Source: an uncultured Alphaproteobacteria bacterium (GTDB lineage: Bacteria > Pseudomonadota > Alphaproteobacteria > HIMB59 > GCA-002718135). From it: a stretch of 64,000 nt of DNA. The notes beneath the pieces are model-generated. The model ran no database searches. It had not been told where the DNA came from and saw only the letters and a list, made by a program, of their open reading frames with translations. The stretch lies in contig CACNAF010000002.1 of the NCBI GenBank assembly GCA_902618385.1, positions 30,988 to 94,987 of the forward strand, read 5' to 3'. Positions 13,821-40,196 of this stretch are shown in pieces. The position numbers were made by a program, and so were the translations under genes. How positions within the stretch are numbered: position 1 is the stretch's first letter; every line of letters starts with the position of its first letter.

Positions 13821-13823
13821 TGA

Positions 13824-14429
13824 ATGTTTTCAACAAGAAATTTTAACCGCAGTAAATCTGTCTTATTTATTTTAATTCTATTTCCTAGTCTACTCTGGGC
13901 GTACCAATTTGTTACTGGAAATCTAGGAGTAAATCCAATTGAAAAACTAATGGATGAGTTAGGTCTAATGGCACTCAGATTAATAATATTAACTCTTATG
14001 ATTACTACATTATCAAATATTAAATCTTTAAAATCGATAGTTGTATTACGAAGAATGATTGGACTTTTTGCTTTCTATTATGTCTGTTTGCATTTCTCTA
14101 CTTACATAGTTTTAGATCATTTTTTAGATATGCAATTTATCATACAAGATATAATAAAAAGACCATTTATAACTTTTGGTTTTATAAGTTTTCTTTTTTT
14201 AATCCCGCTTGCTAGCACCTCAACAAACAATATGATTAAACGACTAGGTTTTAAATTATGGAAGAAAATTCATTATTTAATTTACCCGGTAGCCATTCTG
14301 GCTAGTATGCATTTTTATGTTTTAGTTCGCGCTGATAAAACCGAACCAGTCATATATATGGGAATAATTATCCTCTTGTTACTTCACAGAATATTTAAAA
14401 GACTTACTCGTCCTCAGTTGGCTCAGTAA
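13824..14429 (+). CDS. msrQ: protein-methionine-sulfoxide reductase haem-binding subunit MsrQ (YedZ)
   Basis: 201 aa with 5-6 TM segments and conserved His residues. Lies 3 nt after msrP. Confidence 0.88.
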   Translation: MFSTRNFNRSKSVLFILILFPSLLWAYQFVTGNLGVNPIEKLMDELGLMALRLIILTLMITTLSNIKSLKSIVVLRRMIGLFAFYYVCLHFSTYIVLDHFLDMQFIIQDIIKRPFITFGFISFLFLIPLASTSTNNMIKRLGFKLWKKIHYLIYPVAILASMHFYVLVRADKTEPVIYMGIIILLLLHRIFKRLTRPQLAQ

Positions 14430-17089: not shown

Positions 17090-17983
17090 TTACTTCATGC
17101 CTGTCAAAGTAATTCCTTCAATAAATCGTTTTTGCGCGATTATAAAAGCAACAATAAGGGGTACTGTTACTGTAACTATCGAAGCCATCATAGGACCAAA
17201 TTCATCACTATCAATTCCACCTCTGAATTCTCTTATACCAAGTGGTGGAGTAAAGAGATCTCTATTTCCTGTTATTACCATACGAGGCCAGAAATAATCA
17301 TTCCAGTGTGCAACAACTGAGAATATTGCAAAAGCAAGTAACGCTGGTATTGCAGTTGGAAGCATTACTTTCCATACGATTGCGTACTCTCCCATGCCGT
17401 CCATCCTGGCGGCATCAATTAATTCATCGGGCACAGTCATAAAAAATTGCCGCATTAAAAAAATTCCAAACACCGATATAGTCCAGGGAAGTATCAAGGC
17501 GGAATAGGTGTCAACTAATCCTGCCTGGGCCAACATAACATATAATGGAAGCGCAATTCCGTGAACTGGTATGAGCAAGCAAAATAAAACCATCGAGAAA
17601 ACAAATTCTCGTCCGTAAAATCGTAACTTGGCAAGTGCATACGCGCACGGTAAGGCGACTAAAACCTGAATGATGAAGATTGATAAAGTAACAATGACAC
17701 CATTCATTAAGTATCTAGGAATAGGAGCTTTTTCAAAAGCAAACCAATAGTTGTATTGATATGGCTTCATTGTACATGTTTCTTCTGAATAGCCAGTTTT
17801 AACACACACGGGAAACGTTTGAGTTTCTTGCGCACCAATAAGACCACCAGAAATTGATTGGATTTCTTGCTGAGATTTTAATGACATTGAAACCATCATA
17901 TAAAAAGGGAGCATCACTACGATTGCACCAATAATTAAGATTGCATGCTTCCAACCTTCTCCAATATATTGTTTAGCTTCCAT
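17090..17983 (-). CDS. CUT1-family ABC permease (UgpE/MalG-like)
   Basis: 297 aa with 6 TM segments and an EAA loop (DAARMDGMGEYAIVWKVMLP). Confidence 0.85.
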   Translation of the reverse strand: MEAKQYIGEGWKHAILIIGAIVVMLPFYMMVSMSLKSQQEIQSISGGLIGAQETQTFPVCVKTGYSEETCTMKPYQYNYWFAFEKAPIPRYLMNGVIVTLSIFIIQVLVALPCAYALAKLRFYGREFVFSMVLFCLLIPVHGIALPLYVMLAQAGLVDTYSALILPWTISVFGIFLMRQFFMTVPDELIDAARMDGMGEYAIVWKVMLPTAIPALLAFAIFSVVAHWNDYFWPRMVITGNRDLFTPPLGIREFRGGIDSDEFGPMMASIVTVTVPLIVAFIIAQKRFIEGITLTGMK

Positions 17984-18939
17984 TAATAATGAACCCTCTT
18001 CTCAATGACATATCTTTGGAAAAACGTTAAAACAAGAATAAATCCAATAAAGACAACAGTGATTGCTGCACCGATACTTGTTAAGTTTTGTTGAATAGCT
18101 TTTTCAAAGATTGCATACATCATGACATACGTTGTTTTTGATGGACCACCTTTGGTCAGTATTTCGATTGTATCAAATACTTGAAACGTTCTAATTGTAG
18201 TAATAGTCACAACAAACAACGTTGTTGGACCAAGCATTGGCCATGTAACAAGTTTAAATTGCTCCCATGTAGATTTAGCCCCATCCATTTCTGCAGCTTG
18301 GTATAACTCCCTTGGTATACTTGTTAAGCCAGCTAAATATAAAACCATATTAAAACCAAAAGCCTGCCAAATTCCTATGAAACATACTGTCCAAATCGCA
18401 GTATTTTTTTGTTTTAACCAATATGGAAAATCCATGTTGTTTGCACATGCTACAGCATACCAGCTTTCTTGTGAGTCTACCCATGGCAACCAATGAAAAC
18501 CAAGAATGAATTCCCTAACTCCTCCACACCCATTCGCTAAAAAACTATTTACAATTCCTAATGTTGGATGAAGAGTAAATTCCCATGCAATTGCCATTGC
18601 AAGAAGAGTTGCCATAACTGGAAGAAAAAAAATTGTTTTATATATATCAGCGCCAAACCTTAGTGAGTTTAAAAGCATAGCAGCACATAATCCAAGTACA
18701 ACAGAAATTGGAACGACAACAATAACATACGTCGCTGTGGCCCAAATCATTTTGACATATGTTTTTCGATTGAACATCTTGTCATAATTTTCTAGTCCAA
18801 CCCACTCGAATGTTTTGTTTCCTAAATTGTAGTCAGTAAAAGAAATACCTCCTGCAAGAAAAAGAGGAAAGATTAAAATAATTATCATCAGTATGATTGC
18901 TGGTGCAATAAACCATATGTGAGCTTTTGAATTATGCAT
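17983..18939 (-). CDS. CUT1-family ABC permease (UgpA/MalF-like)
   Basis: 318 aa with an EAA loop (QAAEMDGAKSTWEQFKLVTWP). Its stop overlaps the start of the next permease. Confidence 0.85.
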   Translation of the reverse strand: MHNSKAHIWFIAPAIILMIIILIFPLFLAGGISFTDYNLGNKTFEWVGLENYDKMFNRKTYVKMIWATATYVIVVVPISVVLGLCAAMLLNSLRFGADIYKTIFFLPVMATLLAMAIAWEFTLHPTLGIVNSFLANGCGGVREFILGFHWLPWVDSQESWYAVACANNMDFPYWLKQKNTAIWTVCFIGIWQAFGFNMVLYLAGLTSIPRELYQAAEMDGAKSTWEQFKLVTWPMLGPTTLFVVTITTIRTFQVFDTIEILTKGGPSKTTYVMMYAIFEKAIQQNLTSIGAAITVVFIGFILVLTFFQRYVIEKRVHY

Positions 18940-20065
18940 TAGTAAATTGAACTCTCATTCCTGCTTGATTAAATAGTAATGCTTTATCTGAAACTCTTTT
19001 AATATTCACACTAGAACCGTTTGAAATTTGGTGTGTAAATTGAGGTAAGCCCCTTACAATTATTTTATTTGAACCGTCTTCAATATTTACATGAAAGAAA
19101 ATATCTGAACCTAAATTTTCTCTATATGCAACTATTCCACTAAATGTATTGTCATTACTTTCATTTGTAATTTCTAAATGTTCTGGTCGAATACCAATAT
19201 GTAAATCTGTATTACTTTCAGAACTTTTTCTTTTTAAATTAACGTTGAGAAAACTTACTGTCCCACTTGAGTCCGAAGTTCCTTCAAATATATTTATTTT
19301 TGGACTTCCAACAAACTGAGCCACACTTAATGAGGAAGGATTGTCATATACTTCTTGAGGTGTATCAAGTTGTAATAAATTTCCATCAATCATAACAGCC
19401 ATTCTAGAAGACATAGTTAATGCTTCTGCTTGATCATGTGTAACGTACACAAAAGTAGTTTTAAGTGAATTATGAAGTTCAGATAGTTCAGAACGCATGT
19501 GAACTCTCAAAGCCGCATCTAAATTTGAAAGAGGCTCATCCATTAAAAAGGCAACAGGCTCTCTTACCATAGCACGACCAAGAGCAACTCTTTGTCTTTG
19601 ACCACCTGACAATTGTCCAGGTTTTCTATCTAATAGTTCTGAAATTTTTAAAGTTTCAGAAGTTTTATTTACTAATTGATTTATAGATTCTGTTTTCTCT
19701 TTTTTGCTTGGAGAAAAATTACCAATCAAGGGTAGTCTTTCAAATGCATTATAATCTCTAAGTCTTAATGGAGTTTCTAAATTTCTTCTTACTGTGAGAT
19801 GAGGATAAAGAGCATATGATTGGAATACCATCGCCAAATCTCTTTCACTGGCTCTAACTCTATTTACATTTTTATTATCTATTAATACATCACCCGAAGT
19901 TTGTTGTTCCAATCCTGCAATTATTCTAAGTAATGTAGATTTACCACAACCAGATGGACCAACTAATGTTAAGAATTCTCCATCGTTTATGTCAACATTC
20001 AAATTATTAAGTACTTGTGTAGACCCAAATGACTTTGAAATATTTTTAAGTGATATAGTCCCCAC
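18932..20065 (-). CDS. CUT1-family ABC ATP-binding protein (UgpC/MalK-like)
   Basis: Walker [10 protein letters not shown], signature LSGGQRQRVALGR, Walker B FLMDEPLSNLD, and a C-terminal regulatory domain. GTG start with GGGGGA 6 nt upstream. Confidence 0.88.
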   Translation of the reverse strand: MGTISLKNISKSFGSTQVLNNLNVDINDGEFLTLVGPSGCGKSTLLRIIAGLEQQTSGDVLIDNKNVNRVRASERDLAMVFQSYALYPHLTVRRNLETPLRLRDYNAFERLPLIGNFSPSKKEKTESINQLVNKTSETLKISELLDRKPGQLSGGQRQRVALGRAMVREPVAFLMDEPLSNLDAALRVHMRSELSELHNSLKTTFVYVTHDQAEALTMSSRMAVMIDGNLLQLDTPQEVYDNPSSLSVAQFVGSPKINIFEGTSDSSGTVSFLNVNLKRKSSESNTDLHIGIRPEHLEITNESNDNTFSGIVAYRENLGSDIFFHVNIEDGSNKIIVRGLPQFTHQISNGSSVNIKRVSDKALLFNQAGMRVQFTNA

Positions 20066-20134
20066 TCATTCCCCCTCTATGTTAACTTTAATCTACAAAA
20101 TTTTATTAAATTTGAGAATATTTTAAATCTATTT

Positions 20135-20164
20135 ATTTCAGTTTTATTTCAATTTTATTAACAA
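20135..20164 (-). promoter_or_regulatory. candidate Pho box (three phased heptamers) facing the ugpC-like operon
   Basis: The minus strand reads TTGTTAA-n5-TTGAAAT-AAAA-CTGAAAT. TAAAAT follows 9 nt downstream. The site is about 70 nt upstream of the GTG start. Confidence 0.45.
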
Positions 20165-20241
20165 ATATTCAAATTATCATTGAGTTTAACTAGCAGATAA
20201 CTATAAATTCTTATTTTTAATAATATATATTAGATGAATTT

Positions 20242-21483
20242 GTGTCCGATAACTTAGAAATTAATAAAAGAGAATATCCAAGTAATTTTTCAAAAACTGC
20301 TATTGTGATTTGCCTTGATGGTAGTCAAAAAGAGTATCTCGAAGAAGCATCAAAATCAAATCTTACACCAAACCTTGATAAATTAATTGCAAGTGGTGAA
20401 AACCTACTAGTACACAGCGCTATTCCAAGTTTTACAAATCCAAATAATATTTCGATTGTAACAGGCCAACCAAGTTCTGTTCACGGTATATGCGGGAACT
20501 TCTTTTATACACCCGAGACCGGTGAAGAAGTAATGATGAATGACCCAAAATATATGCGAGCACCAACTATTTTTGAAAAATTTTATAATTCTGGTTCTAA
20601 AATTGCTCTGGTTACTGCAAAAGATAAGCTGAGAACACTTTTAGGAAATGGATTAAGTTTTGATGATGAGAGAGCTATTTGTTTTTCTGCTGAAAAATCT
20701 GATCAAGCAACAAAAGATCTCAATGGTATAGATAATGTAAACGATTGGTTAGGGATGCCAGTGCCAGAAGTATACTCTGAAGAACTTTCTGAATTTGTAA
20801 TGGCTGCAGGTGTAAAGCTTCTTGAAGAGTTCAAACCAAATATCATGTATTTATCGACTACGGATTATATTCAACACAAATATGCGCCAGGAAATGAAAC
20901 AGCAAATAAATTTTATGCAATGTTTGATAAATATATTGGTCTTTTAAATAAGGAGAATGTTTCTATAATTATCACAGCAGATCACGGTATGAAACCAAAA
21001 TCAAAAGAAGATGGTTCACCTAATGCAATATTTTTACAAGATTATTTAGATAAAAAATTTGAACCAAACATGGCTAAAGTTATTCTACCAATTACAGATC
21101 CATATGTTGTGCATCATGGTTCACTTGGTTCTTTTGCAACAATTTATTTAGAAGACAAAAGTAAGATAGATTCAGTTGTAAATGCTATAAAAGAAATAAA
21201 AGATATAGAAGTTGTTTTAACAAAAGACGAAGGATGCTCTACTTATAATTTACCTCCAGATAGAATGGGGGATATTATATGTATGTCTTCAGAATTTATG
21301 ACTATTGGTTCATCAGAAGATAAACACAATCTTTCTGGATTAAATGAACCTTTACGTTCACACGGTGGACTTCATGAAAGAGAAGTGCCATTCATATCAA
21401 ATTTAAAATTACAAAATTTAGATACTAACAAACAATTATATAACTATGATGCATTTTACTATGCAATTAACGGAGCCCTATGA
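20242..21483 (+). CDS. phnA: phosphonoacetate hydrolase
   Basis: Alkaline-phosphatase/NPP superfamily. Nucleophile motif [14 protein letters not shown], plus TADHGM and SHGGLHE. 413 aa with a GTG start. Overlaps the following ALDH by 4 nt, as in characterised phnA-phnY pairs. Confidence 0.82.
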
Positions 21484-22922
21484 TGCACAAAAAAATGATT
21501 AATGAAGCAATGCGTATTGCTGGAGAAAAAGTTACCTCAGATAAAACAATAAATGTTGAGTACCCTTTTACAGGTGAAGTAATCGGAACGGTTCCAGCCG
21601 GTACTGCAGAGCATGCAAGAAAGGCTTTAGATATTGCTGCAAATTACCAACCTAAACTTACAAGATACGAGAGACAAAAAATTCTTCAAACTGCTGCAGA
21701 AGTACTTGTTAAAAGAAAAGAAGAAATTTCTGATATTATTACTTTAGAACTTGGTATCTCAAAACAAGATTCTTTATACGAAGTAGGAAGAGCTTTTGAT
21801 GTCTTTTCATTAACGGCTCAACTTTGTATTCTTGATGATGGAGAAATATTTTCTTGTGATTTAACTCCGCATGGAAAAGCGAGAAAAATATTTACCATAA
21901 GAGAACCTTTAACGGCAATTTCAGCAATCACTCCATTTAATCATCCTTTGAATATGGTAGCGCATAAAATTGCACCTTCAATTGCAACTAATAATTGTAC
22001 TGTATGTAAACAAACAGAATTAACACCCTTAACAGCAATGGTACTTGCTGATGTTTTATATGAAGCAGGTTTACCACCAGAAATGTTTTCAGTTGTAACT
22101 GGATGGCCTCAAGACATTGGATCAGAAATGATCAAAAATCCAAACATTGATCTCATTACTTTTACAGGCAGTGTAGGTGTAGGAAAATTAATTGCTGAAC
22201 AAGCTGGATACAAAAGAACAGTTCTTGAGCTAGGCGGTAATGATCCTTTAATTGTTTTAAACGACTTAGATGGTGATGATCTTAAAAAAGCTGTTGAGCT
22301 AGCTGTTACTGGAGCAACGAAAAACTCTGGTCAACGTTGTACAGCTGTTAAAAGAATACTGGTTCAAGAATCCATTGCAGATCAATTTGTTGAAATGGCT
22401 CTTGAGCGTGCTAAGAAAATTAAATTTGGTGATCCTATGAATATGGAAACAGACTTAGGTACGGTTGTTAATGCTCAAGCTGCAGAACTTTTTGATAAAA
22501 GAGTTTCTATGGCTGAAGAAGACGGTGCAAAAATTTTATATCACCCTGGAAGAAAGGGTGCTTTGTTACCTCCAATAGTTGTAGATCATGTTGATCCTAA
22601 AAGTGAATTAGTTTTAGAAGAAACATTTGGTCCAGTTATCCCAATCATTCGTGTGCCTAATGACGATGAAGCTGTAATGAAAATATCTAATTCAACCGCA
22701 TTTGGATTATCATCTGGTGTATGTACAAATAACTTCATGCGAGCAAAAAAATATATTCAAGGTTTAAATGTTGGAACTGTAAATATTTGGGAGGTTCCAG
22801 GCTATAGAATTGAAATGTCTCCTTTTGGAGGAATTAAAGATTCAGGTCTTGGTTATAAAGAAGGAGTAATTGAAGCAATGAAAAGCTTTACTAATGTAAA
22901 AACTTTCTCGCTACCTTGGTAA
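21480..22922 (+). CDS. phnY: phosphonoacetaldehyde dehydrogenase (NAD-dependent aldehyde dehydrogenase)
   Basis: ALDH motifs ELGGNDP, catalytic Cys in GQRCTAV, and EETFGPV. The call rests on translational coupling to phnA and on phnW nearby. Confidence 0.78.
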
Positions 22923-22977
22923 AAAAACAAGTTTTTCTCTAATTTTTTTATTTCTGTGGAAAAATAAGCTTATTTTT

Positions 22978-23006
22978 TAGTAATATTTTCGTAATAAAAT
23001 TGTAAC
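22978..23006 (+). promoter_or_regulatory. candidate Pho box (three 11-bp-phased heptamers) upstream of the UgpB-like SBP
   Basis: TAGTAAT-ATTT-TCGTAAT-AAAA-TTGTAAC, 53 nt upstream of the ATG. A strong GGGAGG SD sits at 23048-23053. Confidence 0.5.
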
Positions 23007-23058
23007 CCTTTCTAGCTACATGTTAGATTAAATTATTATATTCAATCGGGAGGATTAA

Positions 23059-24312
23059 ATGAAAAAATTAATTACAGGATTGGCAGCCGTATTAGCTTTC
23101 GGTTTTTATGGTTCTGTTAATTCAGCTAAGTCTATTGAAATAGAAGTAGCTTATCCTTATTCAGGATTATTCGATGTAACGTTTCAAGCTATTATGCCAG
23201 AGTTTGAAAAAGCGCATCCAGATATTCAAGTTAAATTTAGAGCAACTTATGAAAACTATGAAGATGCAACTGCAACAATTTTTAGAGAGTCTACTTCAGG
23301 TAACTTACCAGATGTAACGATGCAAGGTCTTAACAGACAAGCACCTCTAGTAGATAAAGGTATTGCAAAGTCTTTAGAGCCATTTATTGCAAAAGAAGCA
23401 GCTTTTGAAAAAGATGGTTACCATTCCGCTATGTTAAGTCTTTCAACATTCGGTGGTGAAGTTTATGGATTACCATTTTCTGTATCAACGCCAGTTGGAT
23501 ATTACAACATGGATCTATTAGCTGAAGCAGGTGTAGATAGTATTCCAACTAACTGGGACGAAGTTATTGCAGCATGTAATAAATTGGAAGCAGCAGGTAA
23601 AGGAACTCTATACTTTGGTTGGAACATCACAGGTAACTGGTTCCACCAAGCATTAATGCATACTCAGAACGTTCCAATGGTTAAAGATGGAGCTGTAAAT
23701 ATGGGTGGTGATGCAGGACTTGCAACGTTAGAGCAAATGAAAGCAATCATGAGTGGATGTAATATGCCAAACTATTCAATTGCTGATGGTCAAGCTGCGT
23801 TTAACGCAGGTACTATTGGTATGATGTTCTGGTCTACTTCAAGCTTGGGTTCAGTTAATGCTGCAAAGGCAGACTTTGTTTTAAAAACTGCACCATTCCC
23901 TGGAATGGCTGGAGTAAACAATGGAACACCAGCAAGATTACCAGCAGGTGGAAACGCTGCAATGTTAGTGTCTACATCTGATGATCCAGCAAGAGTTGAT
24001 GCTGCATGGACTTTCTTAAAGTTCATTACATCAGGTATCGGTGCTGCATTAGTTGCTGAAACAACTGGATATGTTCCACCAAATAAAGCAGCGAATGATT
24101 TATTAGGTGACTTCTATAGTCAAAACCCTAATAAACTTACTGCTGTTGAACAACTTCCACTTCTTGCTGATTGGTTTGCGTATCCTGGAGAAAATGGATT
24201 AGCTGTTACACAGGTAATCTATGATTTCACGGAAGAAATTGCTACAGGTGACGCTGATGATATGGCAGATCTTCAAGAAGAAATGATGGAAGAAATAAAC
24301 GATCTTATGTAA
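23059..24312 (+). CDS. family-1 extracellular solute-binding protein, UgpB-like (glycerophosphoryl or organophosphorus ligand inferred)
   Basis: Signal peptide. Colinear with E. coli UgpB as I recall it (HPDIQVKF..YENYED, FSVSTPVGYYNMDLLAEAG, TGYVPPNKAA). It has its own strong SD and terminator. Confidence 0.75.
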   Translation: MKKLITGLAAVLAFGFYGSVNSAKSIEIEVAYPYSGLFDVTFQAIMPEFEKAHPDIQVKFRATYENYEDATATIFRESTSGNLPDVTMQGLNRQAPLVDKGIAKSLEPFIAKEAAFEKDGYHSAMLSLSTFGGEVYGLPFSVSTPVGYYNMDLLAEAGVDSIPTNWDEVIAACNKLEAAGKGTLYFGWNITGNWFHQALMHTQNVPMVKDGAVNMGGDAGLATLEQMKAIMSGCNMPNYSIADGQAAFNAGTIGMMFWSTSSLGSVNAAKADFVLKTAPFPGMAGVNNGTPARLPAGGNAAMLVSTSDDPARVDAAWTFLKFITSGIGAALVAETTGYVPPNKAANDLLGDFYSQNPNKLTAVEQLPLLADWFAYPGENGLAVTQVIYDFTEEIATGDADDMADLQEEMMEEINDLM

Positions 24313-24342
24313 TTTGAGATTATTTATTATTAACTTTTTATT

Positions 24343-24375
24343 ACAGCGGCTTTATAAAAGCCGCTGTTTTATTTT
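24343..24375 (+). terminator. rho-independent terminator or attenuator after the SBP gene
   Basis: ACAGCGGCTTT-ata-AAAGCCGCTGT (11-bp stem) followed by TTTATTTT. Confidence 0.8.
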
Positions 24376-24399
24376 AAATTTAAATGGGAGTAAAAATAG

Positions 24400-25479
24400 A
24401 TGCCTCTTACAACAACTACAATAGGTGCTTATCCAAAACCTAAACAAACACCCATTCAAGATTGGTTTTTAGGGACAAAATCAGAAGAAGAGAGAAAAGC
24501 ATCAAAAGGATTATTATCAAATTGGTCACCTGGCGCATATGAAAAAGCATTAGAGTCTGCAGGTGCGGATGCTGAAAAATTATTTTTAGCAGCAATTAAA
24601 GAAGTTATAACTGATCAAGTGAGTGCGGGTATTGATGTTCCAACAGATGGGGAAGTTAGGCGTGAGAGTTATGTATTATATCAATGTCGATTTTTAAATG
24701 GTGTAAGTTTTAAGGAAGTTACACATAAGTCAGTAAGACAGGGTGCGTTCGAAGCTGACCTTCCAACTATTGTTGCACCAATTTCAAGTAAAGAAATACG
24801 TATGCATTTAGACTGGAAGAGTGCACAACAATTTACAAAAAACCCAGTTAAAATTACGCTACCTGGACCAATGACAATTACAGATTCAATTGCCAACAAT
24901 TACTATGATGACATGAAAAAACTTGGTTTTGATTTAGCATTAGCCCTCAATAAAGAAGTTAAAGCACTTGTAGATGCAGGTTGTCAGTATATTCAAATTG
25001 ATGAACCAGTATTTGCTAGAAAGCCCGATGAAGCTCATTCTTACGGTATGGAAAATTTAGAAAGAATGATGCATGGTATTCCTAAAGAAGTGCAACGCGT
25101 TTGCCATATCTGTTGTGGTTATCCTAACTCATTAGATTCAGAAGGGTATAAAAAGGCTGATCTAGATGCTTATGATAGAATTGCATCACTTGTAGATGAT
25201 TCAACTATTGATGAAGTATCTTTAGAAGATTCACATAGGCATAATGATTTAAATCTTTTAGAAAAATTTACTAAAACAAAAGTAATTTTTGGATTTATTG
25301 ATATTGCAAAAAGTAGAATGGAGTCTGTTGAAGAGGTAAGAGTTCGTATCAAAGATTCACTTGAACATATTGATGAACACCGCTTAATAGCTGCACCAGA
25401 TTGTGGTTTAGGTTTCTTTACACGAGAACAAGCAATTGAGAAAATGACAATTTTAACTAAAGCGGCAAAATCAATTTAA
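24400..25479 (+). CDS. core-MetE-like protein: cobalamin-independent methionine synthase catalytic domain only (Zn-dependent thiol alkyltransferase)
   Basis: 359 aa. TTTIGAYPKP, PTDGEVRRE and YIQIDEPVF match the MetE C-terminal domain. Zn ligands are present: H-x-C in VCHICCGY, E in VSLEDS, C in APDCGLGF. There is no N-terminal folate-tail domain. Confidence 0.8.
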   Translation: MPLTTTTIGAYPKPKQTPIQDWFLGTKSEEERKASKGLLSNWSPGAYEKALESAGADAEKLFLAAIKEVITDQVSAGIDVPTDGEVRRESYVLYQCRFLNGVSFKEVTHKSVRQGAFEADLPTIVAPISSKEIRMHLDWKSAQQFTKNPVKITLPGPMTITDSIANNYYDDMKKLGFDLALALNKEVKALVDAGCQYIQIDEPVFARKPDEAHSYGMENLERMMHGIPKEVQRVCHICCGYPNSLDSEGYKKADLDAYDRIASLVDDSTIDEVSLEDSHRHNDLNLLEKFTKTKVIFGFIDIAKSRMESVEEVRVRIKDSLEHIDEHRLIAAPDCGLGFFTREQAIEKMTILTKAAKSI

Positions 25480-25483
25480 TGTA

Positions 25484-26596
25484 ATGTGGAATTATTTTAA
25501 TCCTGTTGAAATTATCTTTGGAGAAAATAGATTTAAAGAAGTACATGATGCTCTTAAAAATAAGAACTACATCATAATCACTCATCCAGAAGAAATTTTT
25601 AAAAAATATAGCGATGAATTAAAATCTTCTTCAAATCCACCACTATCCATTATGACGGATGTTCAGCCTAATCCAGATTATAAGGATATTTTAGAGCTAC
25701 AAAAAAAATTTTCTTCAATCAATGAATCGGTAGATTATATTTTAGCTATAGGTGGTGGCTCTGTTACAGACACAGCTAAAGCAATTGCTGCATTTAAAGA
25801 TAAACAAGAATATCTGACAGATTTCGTTCGCAATAAGAAAAGTCCAAGAGTCGAAAATCCAATCAAGATTATTGCAATACCTACAACTTCAGGAACATCA
25901 AGTGAGCTTACGTGTTGGGCCACAATTTGGGATAAAGAAAAAAACAATAAATTATCTTTGGCGCATAAATCTCTTTATGCAGAAAAAACAATTATCGATC
26001 CATCTATTATGGTTGATAAGCCTTTAGGCTTGACCATTTCAACTGGTTTAGATGCTCTCTCCCATTCAATGGAAAGTATTTGGAATATTAATGCAAATCC
26101 AGTTTCTGCTTCTCATGCAATACAAGCATCAAAATTAGTATTAGAAAATTTACCACTTCTCACTAAAGATTTAAGAAGTGTTGAATTACGCTCAAACATT
26201 GCATTGGCGTGTGTTCATGCTGGTTTAGCGTTTTCCAATACGAAAACTGCTATTGCGCACAATCTATCATACCCTGTGACACTCAATTACGGTATTCAGC
26301 ATGGTATTGCTTGTTCATTTACTTTACCCATGATTACTAAAAGTATGGTTGGAATTGATAGTGTCGCTGAAGAAAGACTAAAGTTAATTTTTAACGATAA
26401 CCTTGAAAATGCCGCAAATCATCTGAGTGAATTTATGCGTTCTTTAGAGGTTCCTCTTAACTTAAATGAAATAAAAGTTCCTGTTCAAGAATGGAATAAT
26501 ATAGTAGATGATGCGTTTTTAGGGGAACGAGGTAAAAACTTTATTGGCAATAAAGAAGCCTTTATCTCTTCTGCTAAATCAATGGGACTTTATTAG
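25484..26596 (+). CDS. iron-containing (group III) alcohol dehydrogenase; candidate phosphonoacetaldehyde / 2-hydroxyethylphosphonate oxidoreductase
   Basis: GGGSVTDTAKAIA, PTTSGTSSELT, and metal His motifs LSHSMES and IAHNLSYPV...HGIAC. 370 aa. The substrate is inferred only from context. Confidence 0.75.
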   Translation: MWNYFNPVEIIFGENRFKEVHDALKNKNYIIITHPEEIFKKYSDELKSSSNPPLSIMTDVQPNPDYKDILELQKKFSSINESVDYILAIGGGSVTDTAKAIAAFKDKQEYLTDFVRNKKSPRVENPIKIIAIPTTSGTSSELTCWATIWDKEKNNKLSLAHKSLYAEKTIIDPSIMVDKPLGLTISTGLDALSHSMESIWNINANPVSASHAIQASKLVLENLPLLTKDLRSVELRSNIALACVHAGLAFSNTKTAIAHNLSYPVTLNYGIQHGIACSFTLPMITKSMVGIDSVAEERLKLIFNDNLENAANHLSEFMRSLEVPLNLNEIKVPVQEWNNIVDDAFLGERGKNFIGNKEAFISSAKSMGLY

Positions 26597-26598
26597 TA

Positions 26599-27705
26599 AT
26601 GAAAAAAAATTTCAGGTTTTATGATAACAGACAAAAATACTTGCTATTTGTCACAACAACAAATGAAAAAAATCAAATTGCTGATGCTATACGCCCTCAC
26701 GTAAATAAAATTAAACCTCAAAAACCTGGCATAAAAATATTTGATGCTGGTATGGGTGATGGTTCCTTACTTATGAATGTTATGCGTCAGTGCCACGAGG
26801 CTGAGCCTAACGTACCTTTATTAGTTTGCACAAAAGAAATAAGCATAGAAGATGTAAGATTAGGTTTAGAAAAGTTACCCGATAGGTTTGTTGAGCATAA
26901 GAATACCGTTTTTGTCATTTCAAATCTACACTACGCGGAAGCCGCAAACCTAAAATCAAAAAATGAAGTTAAACAGAAAAAAATTAATTGGAATATTATT
27001 AAATTAAAAGGAGATACCTCTCTTGAATTTGCCCAACAATTAAGAGAACAAAATGAATTTCTAGAAAAAAAATGGAATATAGAAATTAATAAAAAATCAG
27101 GTAACCATACTTATAAAGAGCCTTCAGTCATGGTTATCTACCGCGAAGATCAAGAATTTAATGTTAATGAATTAATACCTACCAAAAAAAAATCAGATAA
27201 TAAATTTGATCTTATTATTGCTTCACAGCCTTATCGTTCAAGAATTTCAGCAGAAAAGAAATCAAAATACGTCATCGAACCAATGATTCGAGCGTTAAAA
27301 TCAAAAGGGAAATTATTAACTATTCATGCTTCAGGAAAAGATCCTGCTAATGAAATAATTCGTAAAATTTGGCCAAAAGAGAACCCATTTCCTTCTCTTG
27401 GAAATAGTATCATTTCTTATCTTAAGAAAAATTTAGATAAAGATCTATTAAGTAGTTTATCGTTTGGAGAAAAAAGAATTATTAAATGTAAATTGAGAGC
27501 TCTACCAACAGAAATCAGTGGAGGTATAGCGACATCATTAGTTTTTTCTGCTTGGAATGCGTCCATATATGTCAATCAAATGGATGATGATCAAGTAATG
27601 AAGGTAGAAAAAACAAGAAATTATGAAAAAGTAGTCCAGAAAATAGTTTCAAAAAATAAAGGCCTTTATTTTAACAATGAAATATTTGTAATCGAAAAAA
27701 AATAA
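26599..27705 (+). CDS. class I SAM-dependent methyltransferase-like protein with a large internal insertion, function unknown
   Basis: Motif I IKIFDAGMGDGSLL, acidic post-I residue in CTKEIS. After about 120 aa come motif II FDLIIASQPY and motif III LKSKGKLLTI. 368 aa. Confidence 0.55.
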   Translation: MKKNFRFYDNRQKYLLFVTTTNEKNQIADAIRPHVNKIKPQKPGIKIFDAGMGDGSLLMNVMRQCHEAEPNVPLLVCTKEISIEDVRLGLEKLPDRFVEHKNTVFVISNLHYAEAANLKSKNEVKQKKINWNIIKLKGDTSLEFAQQLREQNEFLEKKWNIEINKKSGNHTYKEPSVMVIYREDQEFNVNELIPTKKKSDNKFDLIIASQPYRSRISAEKKSKYVIEPMIRALKSKGKLLTIHASGKDPANEIIRKIWPKENPFPSLGNSIISYLKKNLDKDLLSSLSFGEKRIIKCKLRALPTEISGGIATSLVFSAWNASIYVNQMDDDQVMKVEKTRNYEKVVQKIVSKNKGLYFNNEIFVIEKK

Positions 27706-27709
27706 TTTT

Positions 27710-28498
27710 TTATTTAAACCAATTAACTTCTGTTTTTAAAAAATCCTCTGTATGAATAATTAATGCGTCAGATCGAATTATTGCAACATTATAATTTGTA
27801 TCTGTATTTGCCGTTCCTAAACGATATTCATTTGAAAAGTTAGGTATTAGAGGAGACCAAGTACTTCTTGGGGAGGAAAAAGTAATACCACAATAAGAGC
27901 CAGAACTTGTAATGTGTTGATGACCAAAAAAAATATGTTTTATTATCTTATTATTTTTCGTTAAAATTTGTTGAAACTCTTTTTTTTGTTGTAATCCTAT
28001 TCCATCACTTTCCTCTTTTACTAATGCCAGTGGATTATGATGCATAAAGATGTACGTATCCGTATTAGTCTTACTTAAAATATTATTTAACCATTCTTGC
28101 CTCTCTTCACAATAATGTCCTTGGTGAGTGTTAATCAGATTAGTATCTATAAAAATTAAACGTTTATTATCTATATCCTTAAAGTATTGAATAAATCCAT
28201 TTGGATCGGTTTCAATATTAGGAAAGTTTATTTTAAATTCATCTCTGTTATCATGATTACCTATAATTAGTTGAGGATTTAAATTCTTCGGCAGACCTGC
28301 TTCATCAATTATTTTTAAAAATAACTGATAAGAATCTTTATCACCTAAGTCTGTAATATCACCTGTGATGGCAAATAAATCTGCATCACCATGATTATTT
28401 TTTATATGAGTTAATGCTTTTTTAAATTTACTGACAGGATCTATGCCATGAATCTTATCTATATAAATATGAGGGTCTGAAAGGTGAATAATTTTCAT
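27710..28498 (-). CDS. metallophosphoesterase, GpdQ/CpdA-like phosphodiesterase
   Basis: All calcineurin-like motifs are present: HLSDPH, TGDITDLG, GNHDNR, FMHHNP, GHQH. Colinear with Enterobacter GpdQ as I recall it. 262 aa. Confidence 0.8.
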   Translation of the reverse strand: MKIIHLSDPHIYIDKIHGIDPVSKFKKALTHIKNNHGDADLFAITGDITDLGDKDSYQLFLKIIDEAGLPKNLNPQLIIGNHDNRDEFKINFPNIETDPNGFIQYFKDIDNKRLIFIDTNLINTHQGHYCEERQEWLNNILSKTNTDTYIFMHHNPLALVKEESDGIGLQQKKEFQQILTKNNKIIKHIFFGHQHITSSGSYCGITFSSPRSTWSPLIPNFSNEYRLGTANTDTNYNVAIIRSDALIIHTEDFLKTEVNWFK

Positions 28499-28518
28499 TA
28501 TTAAATATAAATTTATAA

Positions 28519-29151
28519 TTAAATCGCAGTTTTAAAATAAATATACTTATTAAATTCTTCTTTTAAGTCGATGCTAACTCTTGCATGTACTTTACCTTGT
28601 TTTCCTTGAAACGATTGTTTTTCTGTAACTGGAAACACCCCTTCATGCCAAATATTTGGATGAATATACAAACCTTTTGATCCGTCACAATAAAATGCTT
28701 TAAAATGTTCTGGTTCAATGTCGTCTGTAGGTAAGGCTAAAGGACAAATAAATGGTTTATTTTCTGTAGGAAAAAAAAGCTGACCTCCATCAGGATGATA
28801 ATTTGCATGCCATAAAAAAATTTTTGTTGGATCTGAATATTTATCTTTTTGTAATTCTTGATCAGGATTATTGGCATAACCCAGTATATATTTTCCATCT
28901 ACTTCATAATCGCTCTTATGTTGGACAGCATTATTTTGTCCATAAAGCACGTCACCTTGCCACCAGGTATCAAAAGAACCTTCGGTAGTTCCACCTTCAT
29001 TACCAGTTCCCTCTTCTATGTCACGCCATCCTTGTTTTGGCCAAGTAACAATTTCAATATCACTATTTTCAAAACTATCGATTAAATACCCGTATCCTTT
29101 AAGATTTTCATTTGTTGCTTTAACTAAAGGTATTTCAATTTCTTTTGTCAT
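28519..29151 (-). CDS. ureidoglycolate-lyase (AllA)-like beta-barrel protein, function unknown
   Basis: Colinear with E. coli AllA as I recall it: LKGYGYLID vs FSAYGDVIE, ANYHPDGGQLFFP vs ERHPLGTQAFIP, GLYIHPNIWHEGVF vs GVNYHRNVWHHPLF. It carries about 50 extra residues. Confidence 0.6.
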   Translation of the reverse strand: MTKEIEIPLVKATNENLKGYGYLIDSFENSDIEIVTWPKQGWRDIEEGTGNEGGTTEGSFDTWWQGDVLYGQNNAVQHKSDYEVDGKYILGYANNPDQELQKDKYSDPTKIFLWHANYHPDGGQLFFPTENKPFICPLALPTDDIEPEHFKAFYCDGSKGLYIHPNIWHEGVFPVTEKQSFQGKQGKVHARVSIDLKEEFNKYIYFKTAI

Positions 29152-29158
29152 TTTTTTG

Positions 29159-30256
29159 TTAGTTTAATGTTAATCCCAACTCAGTAACAACTTCTTTTAC
29201 AGCTTTTATTGTATCCATCATGTCTTGTTCATTTAAATTACCAATACACCCAATTCTAAAAGTTTCTGCCACTGTTAGTTTTCCTGGATAAATTAAAAAA
29301 TCTTTTTCACTAAGAGCATTATAAAATTTATCAAAGTTAAATTTAGGATCATTAGGATGTTTAAAAGTAATAATAATTGGTGCTTGTAAATTATCAGGAA
29401 GTAGTTGCTCAAATCCCAACTCTTTCATTCCATTACAAATAATTTCACAATTTTTTTTATATCTTTTACCTCTTCCCTCTACACCGCCTTGTTCTTTATG
29501 TTCCTCAATCGCTTGGTTGAATGCAGCCAATACGTGTGTTGGAGGTGTAAATCGCCATTGTTTATTTTTTTCCATTGCTTGCCATTGATCATACAAGTCT
29601 AGACTTAGTGAGTGACTATTGCCTTTTGCATTTTGAATAACTTCATTTTTAACAAGAATGAAACCAACACCTGGCACACCTTCTAAGCATTTGTTTGATG
29701 AAGCGGCTACAGCATCAAAAGTAATTGTTTTAGAACTTAAGGGTAATGCACCAAAGGCACTCATTGCATCGATGAATAACGATAAGTTTTTCCCTTCAAC
29801 CAATTTTGCAATCTCTTCAATAGGATTTAAAATACCCGATGTTGTTTCACAATATACAGCAAAGACGTGTGTTAAGTTGTTGCTATCAATTAACTCTTCA
29901 ATTTTATTGATGTCATGTACTTCATGTTCAGCAACTTCATATTCAATAAAATCTCTCCCTAAATAAGTGCACATTTTTTTCATTCTTTGTCCGTAAGCAC
30001 CATTGATCAGAATCAGAATTTTAGAATCTTTTTGAGTAAGAGAGCTCACCATTGACTCTACAGCAAAAGTTCCACTTCCCTGCATTGGAACACATTGATA
30101 TTTATCTTCACCGTCTATTAATTTAACAAGGGAATCTCTAATTGATGCATTGAGATCAATAAATTTTGTATCTCTCGAACCCCAATCATGAAGCATAGCC
30201 TCTTTTGTTGACATCGATGTCGTGAGAGGACCAGGGGTTAATAATTTTTTATCCAT
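29159..30256 (-). CDS. phnW: 2-aminoethylphosphonate--pyruvate transaminase
   Basis: Class V aminotransferase. LLTPGPLTTS N-terminus and HDWGSRDTKF, as in characterised PhnW. 365 aa. Confidence 0.85.
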   Translation of the reverse strand: MDKKLLTPGPLTTSMSTKEAMLHDWGSRDTKFIDLNASIRDSLVKLIDGEDKYQCVPMQGSGTFAVESMVSSLTQKDSKILILINGAYGQRMKKMCTYLGRDFIEYEVAEHEVHDINKIEELIDSNNLTHVFAVYCETTSGILNPIEEIAKLVEGKNLSLFIDAMSAFGALPLSSKTITFDAVAASSNKCLEGVPGVGFILVKNEVIQNAKGNSHSLSLDLYDQWQAMEKNKQWRFTPPTHVLAAFNQAIEEHKEQGGVEGRGKRYKKNCEIICNGMKELGFEQLLPDNLQAPIIITFKHPNDPKFNFDKFYNALSEKDFLIYPGKLTVAETFRIGCIGNLNEQDMMDTIKAVKEVVTELGLTLN

Positions 30257-30344: not shown

Positions 30345-30920
30345 ATGAGAATGGAAGAAAATATCGTAGATTATCTCTTAGATCTTTTGAAAACAAAAGG
30401 TGCTGATATTCAATATGGTAATGAGGATGTGACTCAGCTTGAGCACGCACTCCAATGTGCTGAACTTGCTGAAAAACATAAATTACCAGGACCAACAATT
30501 GCTGCAGCATTACTGCATGATGTTGGCCACCTTATTTATGAGGACGGCGATCCCATTCATGAAGGGAAAGATGGTCATCATGAAAACTTAGGTGCTGATT
30601 TTTTAAAAAAATATTTTGGTGAAGATGTTATTTTACCAATTAGAGCACATGTTGATTCAAAAAGATATTTATCAAGTGTTGAAGAAGGTTATTATGATAG
30701 TCTATCAGAAGCATCGAAACTTTCGTTAAAAGTTCAAGGCGGTCCTTTCACAAAAGAAGAAGCAGATGCGTTTATCAGCAAACCTTTTATGGATGAGGCA
30801 GTAGAGCTTAGAAGATTTGATGATCTAGCAAAAATTCTAGATAAAAAAACTCCCGATGTTGAACATTTTCGCCCCTATTTAGAAGAAGCAAGACAGTCTT
30901 TTTTAGCTAAACAAGCGTAA
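30345..30920 (+). CDS. phnZ: HD-domain diiron oxygenase PhnZ family (C-P cleaving; 1-hydroxy-2-aminoethylphosphonate dioxygenase-like)
   Basis: QLEHALQCA, AALLHDVGH, HHENLGADFL, AHVDSKRYL and LSEASKLSLKVQGGPF are colinear with characterised PhnZ as I recall it. 191 aa. Confidence 0.8.
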   Translation: MRMEENIVDYLLDLLKTKGADIQYGNEDVTQLEHALQCAELAEKHKLPGPTIAAALLHDVGHLIYEDGDPIHEGKDGHHENLGADFLKKYFGEDVILPIRAHVDSKRYLSSVEEGYYDSLSEASKLSLKVQGGPFTKEEADAFISKPFMDEAVELRRFDDLAKILDKKTPDVEHFRPYLEEARQSFLAKQA

Positions 30921-36176: not shown

Positions 36177-36236
36177 AATTTTTTTTTATATTTTTTAGGT
36201 ATAAAAAAAACATGTTCATAAAAAATTCATATTTCT

Positions 36237-36695: not shown

Positions 36696-36727
36696 TCGAG
36701 TTTAATACTTTAGATGTATACATTTCC

Positions 36728-38286: not shown

Positions 38287-38306
38287 TATAAAATTACCTT
38301 AAATAA

Positions 38307-40195: not shown

Positions 40196-40196
40196 T

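Follow-up and report, generated by a model that had tools for sequence, protein, structure and literature searches.

Gene content of the phosphorus island

The stretch of DNA analysed here, 64,000 nucleotides long and referred to below as the window, is by its gene content a SAR11 phosphorus island, coding for an ABC importer, PhnA, PhnY, PhnW, a PhpC-type alcohol dehydrogenase (ADH), a GpdQ-like phosphodiesterase and a PhnZ-like HD protein, and also for Ppk, Ppx and Pst. Two BPD_transp_1 permeases (17090-17983 and 17983-18939, minus strand) and a MalK/UgpC-like ATPase with a TOBE domain (18932-20065, minus strand) form a block (17090..20065) that is divergent from phnA, and belong to the same importer as a 417-aa SBP_bac_1 solute-binding protein of the CUT1 type (23059..24312, plus strand). 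The nearest solved relatives of the binding protein are UgpB, Mtb UgpB and a Thermus dinucleotide binder, that is, binders of phosphodiesters or glycerol-3-phosphate, and it resembles UgpB only weakly, scoring 66 bits where the cut-off is 411. The known AEP transporters AepX and AepS were considered for this importer and rejected, as they belong to pfam13343, a family other than SBP_bac_1 (PMC8316502).

On the plus strand ahead of the binding-protein gene lie those for phosphonoacetate hydrolase, PhnA (20242..21483; 470 bits to TIGR02335, cut-off 408) and phosphonoacetaldehyde dehydrogenase, PhnY (21480..22922; 797 bits to TIGR03250, cut-off 636, and 826 bits to S. meliloti PhnY, PDB 4i3t). 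The binding-protein gene is followed, after a gap of 87 nt, by the gene for a 359-aa core-MetE-like protein (24400..25479, plus strand; ATG at 24400, stop codon within 25479). Within the gap, an 11-bp GC-rich hairpin and then a T run (24343..24367, plus strand) resemble a terminator or attenuator, of the kind often found downstream of genes for ABC binding proteins.

The two genes downstream of the MetE-like gene, both on the plus strand, encode a 370-aa PhpC-type Fe-ADH (25484..26596) and then the 368-aa ORF6 (26599..27705). The ADH scored 362 bits with TIGR03405 (cut-off 424; next best model 157 bits) and 122 bits against the GbsB type, and is probably a 2-hydroxyethylphosphonate (HEP)/phosphonoacetaldehyde oxidoreductase (PMC13576164). 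ORF6 has a class-I SAM-methyltransferase fold with motif I FDAGMGDG, falls in no Pfam family and is nearest in fold to histamine N-methyltransferase; a 70%-identical paralogue stands directly after metY in the SAR11 core genome. On the minus strand there follow a 262-aa metallophosphoesterase (27710..28498) that is probably a phosph(on)odiesterase, its nearest solved relatives being GpdQ and Rv0805, a 210-aa protein with a weak PF04115 (ureidoglycolate-lyase fold) match that travels with the island (28519..29151), and 2-aminoethylphosphonate (AEP):pyruvate transaminase, PhnW (29159..30256; 510 bits to NF010006, cut-off 296). An HD-domain protein (30345..30920, plus strand; 201 bits to TIGR03276, cut-off 214.6) is a candidate PhnZ/TmpB-like phosphonate oxygenase.

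The MetE-like protein and its place among methionine synthases

The initial annotation had described the protein as a half-size MetE made up of the C-terminal catalytic barrel alone, and the ORF translation does carry the motifs TTTIGAYPKP, DGEVRRE, IQIDEPVF, VCHICCGY, SLEDS and APDCGLG. The HMM comparison it proposed bore this out: the Pfam model PF01717 matched residues 53-357 over nearly the whole profile (positions 27-323 of 324; E=5.7e-35), and the full-length MetE model TIGR01371 matched only at its C-terminal third (positions 457-750 of 754; 92 bits against a cut-off of 930). PF08267, the N-terminal barrel said to be missing, gave 16 bits against a cut-off of 27 and only over an internal stretch of the 359 residues.

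Active-site residues were mapped by alignment with E. coli MetE and genuine MesD. It can be seen that the zinc ligands H641, C643, E665 and C726 of E. coli MetE correspond to H236, C238, E276 and C335, as had been claimed for all four positions, and that the homocysteine amino-group binders E484 and D599 correspond to E85 and D201; across 21 members of the family (54-100% identity) none of the six varies. Also invariant in the family is Y241, the equivalent of the MesD-specific carboxylate contact Tyr226. The further claim of an intact homocysteine site holds for three of four contacts: of Ser22, Glu73, Asp188 and Tyr226 in MesD (3RPD numbering), Glu, Asp and Tyr are kept, and the Ser, Ser433 in E. 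coli MetE, is replaced by Ala10, a position that varies between A and S across the family. Many Arg and Lys residues are invariant, among them R87, R88, R113, K151, R207, K252 and R280, and an aromatic-rich, family-specific insertion at about residues 18-50 adds roughly 20 residues relative to MesD. We conclude from these profile matches and alignments that this is a core protein of the MetE type, in which the zinc site is intact and a folate-tail domain is absent.

MesD is the best match in both sequence and fold. PDB 3rpd, which is selenomethionine-bound MesD, matches at E=5e-44, far above chance, and the AlphaFold model (pLDDT 89.5), a second check that had been proposed, superposes on 3rpd with TM 0.82/0.86 and on MetE C-terminal barrels with TM 0.77. 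In BLASTP the protein is 31% identical to genuine A. baumannii MesD, whose gene adjoins DUF1852, and it is 29% identical to the E. coli MetE C-terminus. The MesD family has been delimited by at least 390 bits in BLASTP to an ACIAD3523-type MesD (Price et al. 2021, PMC7857596); with the A. baumannii protein as reference in place of ACIAD3523, the score was 164 bits. No curated methionine-synthase cut-off was reached, the best models giving about 194 bits against cut-offs of 392-406, and the archaeal/anaerobe core-synthase models stayed below half of theirs (NF003317, 194 against 406 bits; NF002119, 115 against 258). The plasmid database returned only MesD-type proteins at no more than 33% identity and therefore holds no annotated close relative, and a genome-collection scan with the single protein as query returned only SAR11 relatives. 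On these sequence comparisons the protein is a member of a distinct, tightly conserved marine family with MesD as its nearest known relative. Judged by curated-model scores and by identity to MesD and MetE, it lies outside the subfamilies with a proven corrinoid or methyl-THF donor, where a placement would have told against the initial annotation.

With MesD the protein shares a single PF01717 barrel of ~350 aa, the H-x-C...E...C zinc site, three of the four homocysteine contacts, among them the Tyr in 'GY' after HxC, and an occurrence in aerobic bacteria. MesD, however, is oxygen- and MesX-dependent, whereas MesX (DUF1852) gave no tblastn match (E<=1) across the window and the 167 loci compared below, DUF1852 was not found among the island proteins in a profile search, and no flavin reductase lies near the MetE-like gene in any locus, its neighbours being an ABC importer and phosphonate genes. 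With MetE (EC 2.1.1.14) it shares the catalytic C-terminal barrel, the zinc ligands, the DGE and DEP homocysteine-binding motifs and, presumably, the thiol chemistry, but it lacks the N-terminal barrel that closes over methyl-THF-polyglutamate. MesA, MesB and MesC are alike in half-size MetE architecture and a non-folate donor, but depend on corrinoid proteins and are found in anaerobes with methyl-corrinoid proteins; a profile search of the SAR11 island found no corrinoid or B12-binding protein encoded there.

Neighbours of the gene within and beyond SAR11

We compared neighbourhoods in the window and in 167 loci (L-numbers). Orthologues outside SAR11 with recurring phosphorus neighbours were found at 52-73% identity. 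An orthologous ABC importer adjoins the MetE-like gene in L075, L077, L078, L089, L090, L093, L095, L097, L098 and L100-L102, with identities to the window in L075/L077/L078 of 62-64% for the binding protein, 63-71% for the permeases and 54-59% for the ATPase. True PhnA is encoded near the gene in L085, L089 and L100, true PhnY in L089 and L100, and PhnW in L128. Three unrelated ADH types flank it, namely the PhpC type, a Zn-ADH that matches TIGR03366 ('phosphonate catabolism associated ADH') and an HIBADH-like enzyme; HEP-dehydrogenase-type ADHs adjoin it in SAR11, L077, L085, L089, L095 and L098-L102. Co-location of the family with PhnA, PhnY, PhnW or HEP-dehydrogenase genes thus extends over SAR11 (about 65 single-cell genomes), L089, L085, L100, L128, L077 and L095; the counter-examples are L071-73, L167 and L103. 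In L071-73 and L167 standalone orthologues (69-71% identity) have no transporter or phosphonate genes nearby. Because SAR11 genes are so tightly packed, adjacency inside SAR11 is weak evidence on its own. We conclude that the phosphorus link of the family is not peculiar to SAR11; a conserved non-phosphorus context, which the initial annotation had thought would count against it, is not what the several non-SAR11 lineages present.

A general-purpose role has to be weighed at this point. The protein could be an alternative methionine synthase that takes an endogenous methyl group via a partner protein, with ORF6 in a MesX-like role, and that resides in the island only through a raised methionine/SAM demand under phosphorus stress, for example in methylating phosphorus-free lipids. 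Its closest known family is MesD, the SAM synthetase gene metK adjoins it in L085 (and is near it in L089), standalone orthologues exist in L071 and L167, and homologues of ORF6, whose 70%-identical paralogue follows metY, accompany it in unrelated lineages (L098/L102, L157 and, in two copies and with no phosphonate genes, L103). However, ORF6 is absent from the MetE-like-bearing islands L052, L057 and L079 and from the majority of loci outside SAR11, net methionine synthesis is beyond a SAM-dependent methyltransferase, and there would be no explanation for why the importer is a near-constant neighbour or why PhnA, PhnY and phosphonate-type ADHs recur. As a test of a housekeeping methionine-synthase role we also searched for riboswitches (Rfam, permissive E-values), and no SAM or B12 riboswitch was found in the window, L071, L074, L159, L160 or L167, so that none stands upstream in any context checked. 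We consider this role unlikely.

In sister SAR11 islands the same chromosomal slot lacks the MetE-like gene and holds one for a PF02574 homocysteine S-methyltransferase, in the orders PhnA-PhnY-FeADH-ORF6-PF02574 / Mphos (L159) and PhnA-PhnY-PF02574 / Mphos-cupin-PhnW (L162/L163). This gene has no homologue in the window, its product reaches the cut-off of no curated PF02574 model, and exactly one homocysteine methyltransferase, of either type, is present in each of the four island variants seen. PF02574 enzymes of the BHMT/MmuM type carry out Zn-thiolate methyl transfer from small onium donors to homocysteine, without folate or B12, but they belong to a Pfam family of their own, in which no sequence similarity to the MetE-like protein could be detected, and are non-homologous to it. 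To our knowledge, betaine, SMM, SAM and DMSP, the small molecules characterised as donors for PF02574 enzymes, are all onium compounds; methyl-THF and methylcobalamin are the remaining known donors (in part from PMC12366255).

This swap also bears on whether methionine is formed at all. The protein might instead be an alkyl transferase like the epoxyalkane:CoM transferases, which the PF01717 superfamily includes, or might use a thiol other than homocysteine, for example in phosphonate ring-opening or alkylation; the Ala at the Ser433 position and the downstream alcohol dehydrogenase, as in the epoxide pathway, are compatible with this. The conserved homocysteine contacts, the exchange with a PF02574 homocysteine methyltransferase and the metK genes of L085 and L089 make it highly implausible. 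No CoM or carboxylase genes were seen among the neighbours.

Possible sources of the methyl group

Since the MetE-like family recurs beside an organophosphate importer and phosphonate-degrading genes, the methyl source is probably an imported methylated phosphorus compound and not folate. The reading that we tentatively favour, and regard as quite possible, is that the protein is a Zn-dependent homocysteine S-methyltransferase taking its methyl group from an imported methylated organophosph(on)ate, likeliest from a trimethylammonium head group; we infer both homocysteine as acceptor and the imported compound as donor. In a module for organophosph(on)ate catabolism, the enzyme would then serve to harvest methyl groups. 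The UgpB-like importer would bring in a phospho- or phosphono-diester, the GpdQ-like phosphodiesterase would free the head group, and the Zn-bound homocysteine thiolate would accept a methyl from a head group that is methylated, most likely as trimethylammonium ('betaine-type'). The products would be methionine and a demethylated compound that could pass through PhnW or the PhpC-type ADH to phosphonoacetaldehyde, and by PhnY and PhnA to acetate and phosphate. More speculatively, the leading donor candidate would be N,N,N-trimethyl-2-aminoethylphosphonate or less methylated AEPs, with choline-derived betaine possible in some lineages, and ORF6 might act as a sink, homocysteine being regenerated by way of the SAM cycle, or as an N-methyltransferase on the same head groups.

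Consistent with the favoured reading are the zinc ligands, E85, D201 and Y241, invariant across 21 members, the superposition on 3rpd (TM 0.82), the synteny with importer, PhnA/PhnY/PhnW, ADH and metK genes beyond SAR11, the replacement by a non-homologous homocysteine methyltransferase in sister islands, and the lack of an alternative methyl source (MesX or a corrinoid protein) at the SAR11 loci. Hints of a quaternary-amine donor come from neighbours: a BCCT transporter divergent from the gene in L075, GCV_T or DMGDH-like demethylases in L074, L099, L104, L138 and L162, BADH-like aldehyde dehydrogenases in L085, L095 and L100, a choline kinase with a methyltransferase in L099, and an OpuA system that abuts PhnW in L058/L060/L063 and L162. 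OpuAC is 96% identical between island variants, against 72-80% for island genes, so OpuA may simply belong to the core flanking genes; for this reason we downgraded the OpuA and DMGDH neighbours of variant V4, the only variant with a DMGDH-like gene, as proof of a trimethyl-AEP pathway. Against the favoured reading stand the standalone orthologues of L071-73 and L167, whose hosts must also have access to the donor, the weak UgpB resemblance of the binding protein, the unexplained role of ORF6 with its core-genome paralogue, the lack in the window's island of an enzyme for the second and third N-demethylations, and the recurring alcohol dehydrogenase link, for which an N-methyl donor does not account.

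Some of the same neighbours would suit a betaine-homocysteine methyltransferase analogue, in which glycine betaine (or DMSP), derived from the choline of imported glycerophosphocholine, donates the methyl group, no phosphonate does so, and the phosphonate genes are co-resident for phosphorus scavenging. An ADH, a BADH-like aldehyde dehydrogenase and a homocysteine methyltransferase (with GCV_T) make up the canonical choline-betaine-dimethylglycine order, which fits L085, L095, L100, L074 and L099; the binding protein resembles GPC-binding UgpB, GDPD genes are present in island variants, and standalone orthologues would be explained because betaine and DMSP are ubiquitous. Yet in SAR11 the one aldehyde dehydrogenase of the island is a genuine PhnY (826 bits to 4i3t), the island ADH is of the PhpC and not the GbsB type (122 bits), true PhnA and PhnY accompany the gene outside SAR11 too, and SAR11 already has a core betaine-homocysteine methyltransferase. 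We find this rather improbable.

The alcohol dehydrogenases would be accommodated by a homocysteine-dependent O-demethylase that strips a methyl ester (or ether) from methylated HEP and so unmasks HEP for a PhpC- or PbfG-type dehydrogenase, PhnY and PhnA. Ada, in which a Zn-thiolate attacks methyl phosphoesters, provides a precedent. The invariant R87, R88, R113, K151, R207, K252 and R280 could hold the phosphonate, a GpdQ-like esterase co-occurs, and HEP-dehydrogenase-type ADHs of three unrelated folds adjoin the gene in SAR11 and the other loci listed above (PMC13576164). Several points render it decidedly improbable: O-methyl phosph(on)ates are not known as donors for any enzyme of PF01717 or PF02574, HEP methyl esters are undocumented in seawater, the hydrolytic esterase of the same island would make the step redundant, and the PF02574 swap and quaternary-amine neighbours point to onium donors.

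Within the favoured reading, methyl transfer from an imported organophosph(on)ate, a more specific version is that the MetE-like protein and its PF02574 stand-in are trimethyl-/N-methyl-2-aminoethylphosphonate:homocysteine methyltransferases, acting non-oxidatively and conserving the methyl group by analogy with the conversion of betaine to dimethylglycine. We hold this version to be fairly unlikely. Trimethyl-AEP is frequent in nature and is not a substrate of known FAD enzymes, and only one route for its degradation, TmpA/TmpB, has been described (PMC10590968). The MetE-like gene sits in clusters of the hydrolytic AEP/HEP pathways (PhnW, PhpC/PbfG, PhnY and PhnA), to which its product would be a further feeder beside the 'Pbf' enzymes, widening the substrate range. 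Known phosphonate feeders are FAD oxidases, a PLP lyase, a racemase and dehydrogenases, and no methyltransferase-type feeder is described in the same sources (PMC10590968, PMC13576164, PMC9381506). Neither the MetE-like gene nor a homocysteine methyltransferase in these clusters is mentioned in the literature on HEP dehydrogenases, FAD 'Pbf' enzymes, marine phosphonate surveys, SAR11 transport proteins or SAR11/HIMB59 phosphorus islands; a Phaeobacter gene termed 'Mes-like' gave no DMSP-related phenotype when knocked out (PMC12366255).

Non-folate donors are known for core methionine synthases, and for the aerobic bacterial ones the present family offers a tractable case, as the conserved adjoining importer and the replacement by a non-homologous homocysteine methyltransferase limit the possible donors to a few compounds that can be tested. 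The gene lies in a phosphorus island of SAR11, the most abundant surface-ocean bacteria, which also depend on reduced sulfur and methyl-group metabolism. A methylated phosphonate as donor would mean that marine phosphonate mineralisation has a further, new point of entry and that phosphorus scavenging is linked to the methionine/SAM cycle; two large protein families that lack annotation would also gain functions. Should the N-methyl-AEP:homocysteine version be true, the methylated aminophosphonate head groups of phosphonolipids would enter the PhnW-PhnY-PhnA pathway in SAR11 and other marine bacteria with methionine being made, and a core-MetE family would have its first small-molecule methyl donor.

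Domain content and active site of the MetE-like protein

The gene at 24400-25479 (+) starts with ATG and encodes a 359-aa protein that the initial annotation had described as a half-size MetE with an intact zinc/homocysteine site and no folate-tail domain. The half-size ORF proved to be real: the HMM search proposed at that stage gave PF01717 as the only family (E=5.7e-35, nearly the entire profile covered), PF08267, the N-terminal MetE domain, was sub-threshold, in keeping with the described loss, and just the last third of the full-length MetE model TIGR01371 aligned. Its match to cobalamin-independent methionine synthase is limited to the catalytic barrel.

Residues were mapped by alignment with E. 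coli MetE and a genuine Acinetobacter MesD (the core methionine synthase), which is encoded beside DUF1852. It can be seen that all four zinc ligands are kept, as had been claimed (H236, C238, E276 and C335), along with E85 and D201, which bind the homocysteine amino group, and that these six residues are invariant across 21 family members of 54-100% identity. The homocysteine site stood up less completely: Tyr226, a MesD-specific homocysteine carboxylate contact (PMC7857596), corresponds to the invariant Y241, but the equivalent of Ser433, also a carboxylate contact, is Ala10 and varies between Ala and Ser across the family. A structural model had likewise been suggested, and the AlphaFold model built from the family alignment was confident (pLDDT 89.5). 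It superposed best on 3rpd, Shewanella MesD with selenomethionine (TM 0.82/0.86), followed by MetE C-terminal barrels (TM ~0.77).

The SAR11 phosphorus island and its variants

All 70 of the 70 genome matches of the protein were to Pelagibacterales (SAR11) single-cell genomes, and the window has a G+C content of 30.5%. The MetE-like gene sits inside a SAR11 phosphorus island, the initial annotation having placed it in a P-scavenging island; PhnA, PhnY, PhnW, a PhpC-type Fe-ADH, Ppk, Ppx and PstSCA are all encoded in the window. A CUT1 ABC importer (ATPase and two permeases; 17090-20065, -) is followed by PhnA (20242-21483, +) and PhnY (21480-22922, +; 826 bits to S. meliloti PhnY 4i3t), both exceeding curated cut-offs, and by an SBP_bac_1 binding protein (23059-24312, +) whose closest solved relatives bind phosphodiesters or G3P. 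Directly 3' of the binding-protein gene, a strong hairpin of 11 bp is followed by a T run (24343-24367, +); this element could raise the binding-protein transcript above that of the downstream enzyme genes. The Fe-ADH gene (25484-26596, +) starts 4 nt downstream of the MetE-like gene and is followed after 2 nt by ORF6 (26599-27705, +), which encodes 368 aa with no Pfam family; then come a GpdQ-like metallophosphoesterase (27710-28498, -), a 210-aa PF04115-like protein (28519-29151, -) and PhnW, identified by NCBIfam profile search (29159-30256, -). From 30345 onwards, on mixed strands, lie a PhnZ-like HD protein, a dual-specificity-type phosphatase, PHO4/PhoU, Ppk, Ppx, glycosyltransferases, a PhoR-like kinase and PstSCA. 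As the stretch at 34071-47000 (Ppk, Ppx, GT4 glycosyltransferases, PhoR-like histidine kinase, PstS/PstC/PstA) continues from the phosphonate genes, ~17 kb to ~47 kb forms one phosphorus-acquisition region. The conserved left flank of the island comprises an MsrPQ-like pair (molybdopterin oxidoreductase and ferric-reductase-like membrane protein, 12903-14429) with MFS, FYDLN_acid and EamA genes.

The slot at 17090-30256 was compared with L159, L162/L163, L052/L079, L010 and L016, from among 167 fetched loci (L-numbers), and proved to be mosaic: within constant flanks, at least four variants of gene content occur. These differ in having the MetE-like gene or PF02574, a separate homocysteine S-methyltransferase family, in the presence of ORF6, in extra CUT1 importers with GDPD, and in a DMGDH-like gene. 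The MetE-like gene is found in the layout of the window and, without ORF6, in L052, L057 and L079; PF02574 is found in L159 (PhnA-PhnY-FeADH-ORF6-PF02574 / Mphos, followed by a second CUT1 importer plus GDPD) and in L162 and L163 (PhnA-PhnY-PF02574 / Mphos-PF04115-PhnW-DMGDH-like-OpuA). Each of the four variants has exactly one homocysteine methyltransferase. The window has no homologue of the island PF02574 protein, which does not reach the cut-off of any curated PF02574 model. A shared function is the best explanation for two unrelated zinc-thiolate homocysteine methyltransferases occupying one and the same position. Together with the conserved homocysteine contacts and the SAM synthetase gene metK, adjacent to the MetE-like gene in L085 and nearby in L089, this one-per-variant pattern, the strongest of the three lines, points to a predicted homocysteine-methylating enzyme.

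ORF6 is predicted to fold as a class-I SAM-dependent small-molecule methyltransferase (model pLDDT 78.6; nearest fold histamine N-methyltransferase). Its family, without Pfam model or name, has >5000 homologues, among them L161:8001-9110, L098:390-1832 and L103:11088-13563. A 70%-identical paralogue lies in the SAR11 core genome directly after metY and an alpha/beta hydrolase gene, in L098 and L102 the ABC operon is preceded by an N-terminally extended form of 480 aa, and in L103 two copies flank the MetE-like gene. The PF04115-like protein, whose match to this ureidoglycolate-lyase fold is weak, pairs with an HD-domain protein (30345-30920, +) that is a candidate PhnZ/TmpB-like oxygenase (TIGR03276 201 bits, cut-off 214.6). 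The pair recurs in L123 (4192-5493), adjoining a 53%-identical MetE-like gene, and the PF04115-like protein may, as a new partner, take the place of the 2OG dioxygenase that is usual in oxidative C-P cleavage of the PhnY*/PhnZ type.

Neighbourhoods beyond SAR11

The order SBP - MetE-like - FeADH - ORF6 is conserved in ~65 SAR11 single-cell genomes. SAR11 genes are packed so tightly that adjacency there by itself says little; the argument is built on the reappearance of the context in other lineages and on the replacement of the gene by a non-homologous one. Non-SAR11 contexts came from contig look-ups and a metagenome scan; ORF calls on GC-rich metagenome contigs gave spurious antisense ORFs, and only BLAST- or HMM-confirmed genes were used.

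An orthologous importer adjoins the MetE-like gene in L075, L077, L078, L089, L090, L093, L095, L097, L098 and L100-L102, with identities to the window, measured in L075, L077 and L078, of 62-64% (SBP), 63-71% (permeases) and 54-59% (ATPase). Genuine PhnA is encoded in L085, L089 and L100, of which L089 and L100 also encode genuine PhnY; for L085 and L100 these calls were checked against curated cut-offs, and for L089 they follow from identities of 71% and 80% to the genes of the window. In L128 the gene of a PhnW homologue (45% identity) runs divergently to the MetE-like gene. The alcohol dehydrogenases beside the gene are of three unrelated folds: PhpC-type (SAR11 and L089), Zn-ADH matching TIGR03366, 'phosphonate catabolism associated alcohol dehydrogenase' (L077, L085, L095), and HIBADH-like (L098, L100, L102). 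A GpdQ-like phosphoesterase accompanies it in L074, L075, L090, L093 and L099. The exceptions are standalone 69-71%-identical orthologues in the Magnetovibrio-type loci L071-73 and in L167, and remoter relatives (50-54%) have mixed neighbours. We conclude that the phosphorus context is conserved well beyond SAR11. As importer, PhnA/PhnY, PhnW and phosphonate-type dehydrogenases all recur there, the neighbourhoods do not show the conserved non-phosphorus context that the initial annotation had named, together with placement in a subfamily of proven corrinoid or methyl-THF donor, as evidence against its reading. Upstream of the standalone orthologues are unusually long non-coding regions of 650-780 nt (L071:9213-9882; L167:9219-10001), in which no Rfam riboswitch was found; that of L167 contains a tRNA, and an integrase/primase element lies downstream.

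Methyl donor and family placement

A trimethylammonium or other onium methyl donor is hinted at by the small-molecule donors characterised for PF02574 enzymes, namely betaine, SMM, SAM and DMSP (PMC12366255), by the ORF6 fold, and by a BCCT transporter divergent from the MetE-like gene (L075), OpuA systems abutting PhnW (L058, L060, L063, L162), GCV_T or DMGDH-like N-demethylases (L074, L099, L104, L138, L162), BADH-like aldehyde dehydrogenases (L085, L095, L100) and a choline kinase with a methyltransferase (L099). In L099 (887-3963 and 7406-8533) a GpdQ-like phosphoesterase, choline/ethanolamine kinase and class-I methyltransferase adjoin a 72%-identical MetE-like gene, with the GCV_T demethylase further on, a grouping that suggests a theme of phospho-bases or quaternary amines. 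Around the 72%-identical orthologue of L075 (1045-2636, 6067-7680 and 14976-16925) are the BCCT gene, a 649-aa URO-D and B12-binding fusion and MTHFR with DUF5981; the last two indicate a methyl-corrinoid system beside the same ABC operon.

Weighing these hints against the objections, we rank first, tentatively and at somewhat less than even chances, the head group of an imported, methylated organophosph(on)ate. Trimethyl-AEP (AEP, 2-aminoethylphosphonate) leads the head-group candidates, although as the specific donor it is doubtful. It is common in nature, is not attacked by known FAD enzymes and has one described catabolic route only, TmpA/TmpB (PMC10590968). The MetE-like enzyme would carry out a homocysteine-dependent first demethylation, and further demethylation would lead into PhnW-PhnY-PhnA, mirroring betaine catabolism. 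Against a trimethylammonium donor, enzymes for the later demethylations are missing from the window, OpuA may simply belong to the core flanks, and the standalone orthologues call for a widely available donor. An endogenous methyl group supplied by a partner protein, ranked second, is rather improbable. A further objection to a trimethylammonium donor is that the recurrent alcohol dehydrogenases point instead to a choline-to-betaine route or to a step yielding HEP (2-hydroxyethylphosphonate), such as O-demethylation of methylated HEP; glycine betaine or DMSP as donor, ranked third, is unlikely, and an O-methyl HEP derivative, placed fourth, a little more so. Alkyl transfer without homocysteine, in fifth place, is very improbable.

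By score, the protein falls outside every curated methionine-synthase family: its top NCBIfam models reach ~194 bits (cut-offs 392-406), and it shares 29% identity with E. coli MetE and 31% with genuine MesD (164 bits by BLASTP), a family delimited at 390 bits by Price et al. (PMC7857596). Unlike MetE it has no N-terminal barrel; unlike MesD it has no partner MesX (DUF1852), of which no homologue was found in the window or any of the 167 loci; and it falls short of the curated models for MesA-C, and no corrinoid protein is encoded in the SAR11 island. The family differs from MesD and MetE in an additional, aromatic-rich stretch of ~20 residues close to the N-terminus (D21 W22 F23 ... W42 ... 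Y47 E48) and in numerous invariant Arg/Lys residues. Among PLSDB plasmids the relatives were of MesD type only (identity <=33%). The protein database contains thousands of relatives, of which the best 120 clusters are all >=55% identical, carry automatic names only and come nearly all from marine metagenomes and single-cell genomes. The literature examined on phosphonate clusters, SAR11 phosphorus islands and core methionine synthases makes no mention of the association between the MetE-like gene and phosphorus genes. In mechanism at the thiol site the protein is closest to MesD/MetE, and in physiological role to BHMT/MmuM. We suggest that the MetE-like proteins form a fifth core-MetE family, marine and aerobic, that has its own conserved context and a predicted enzymology.
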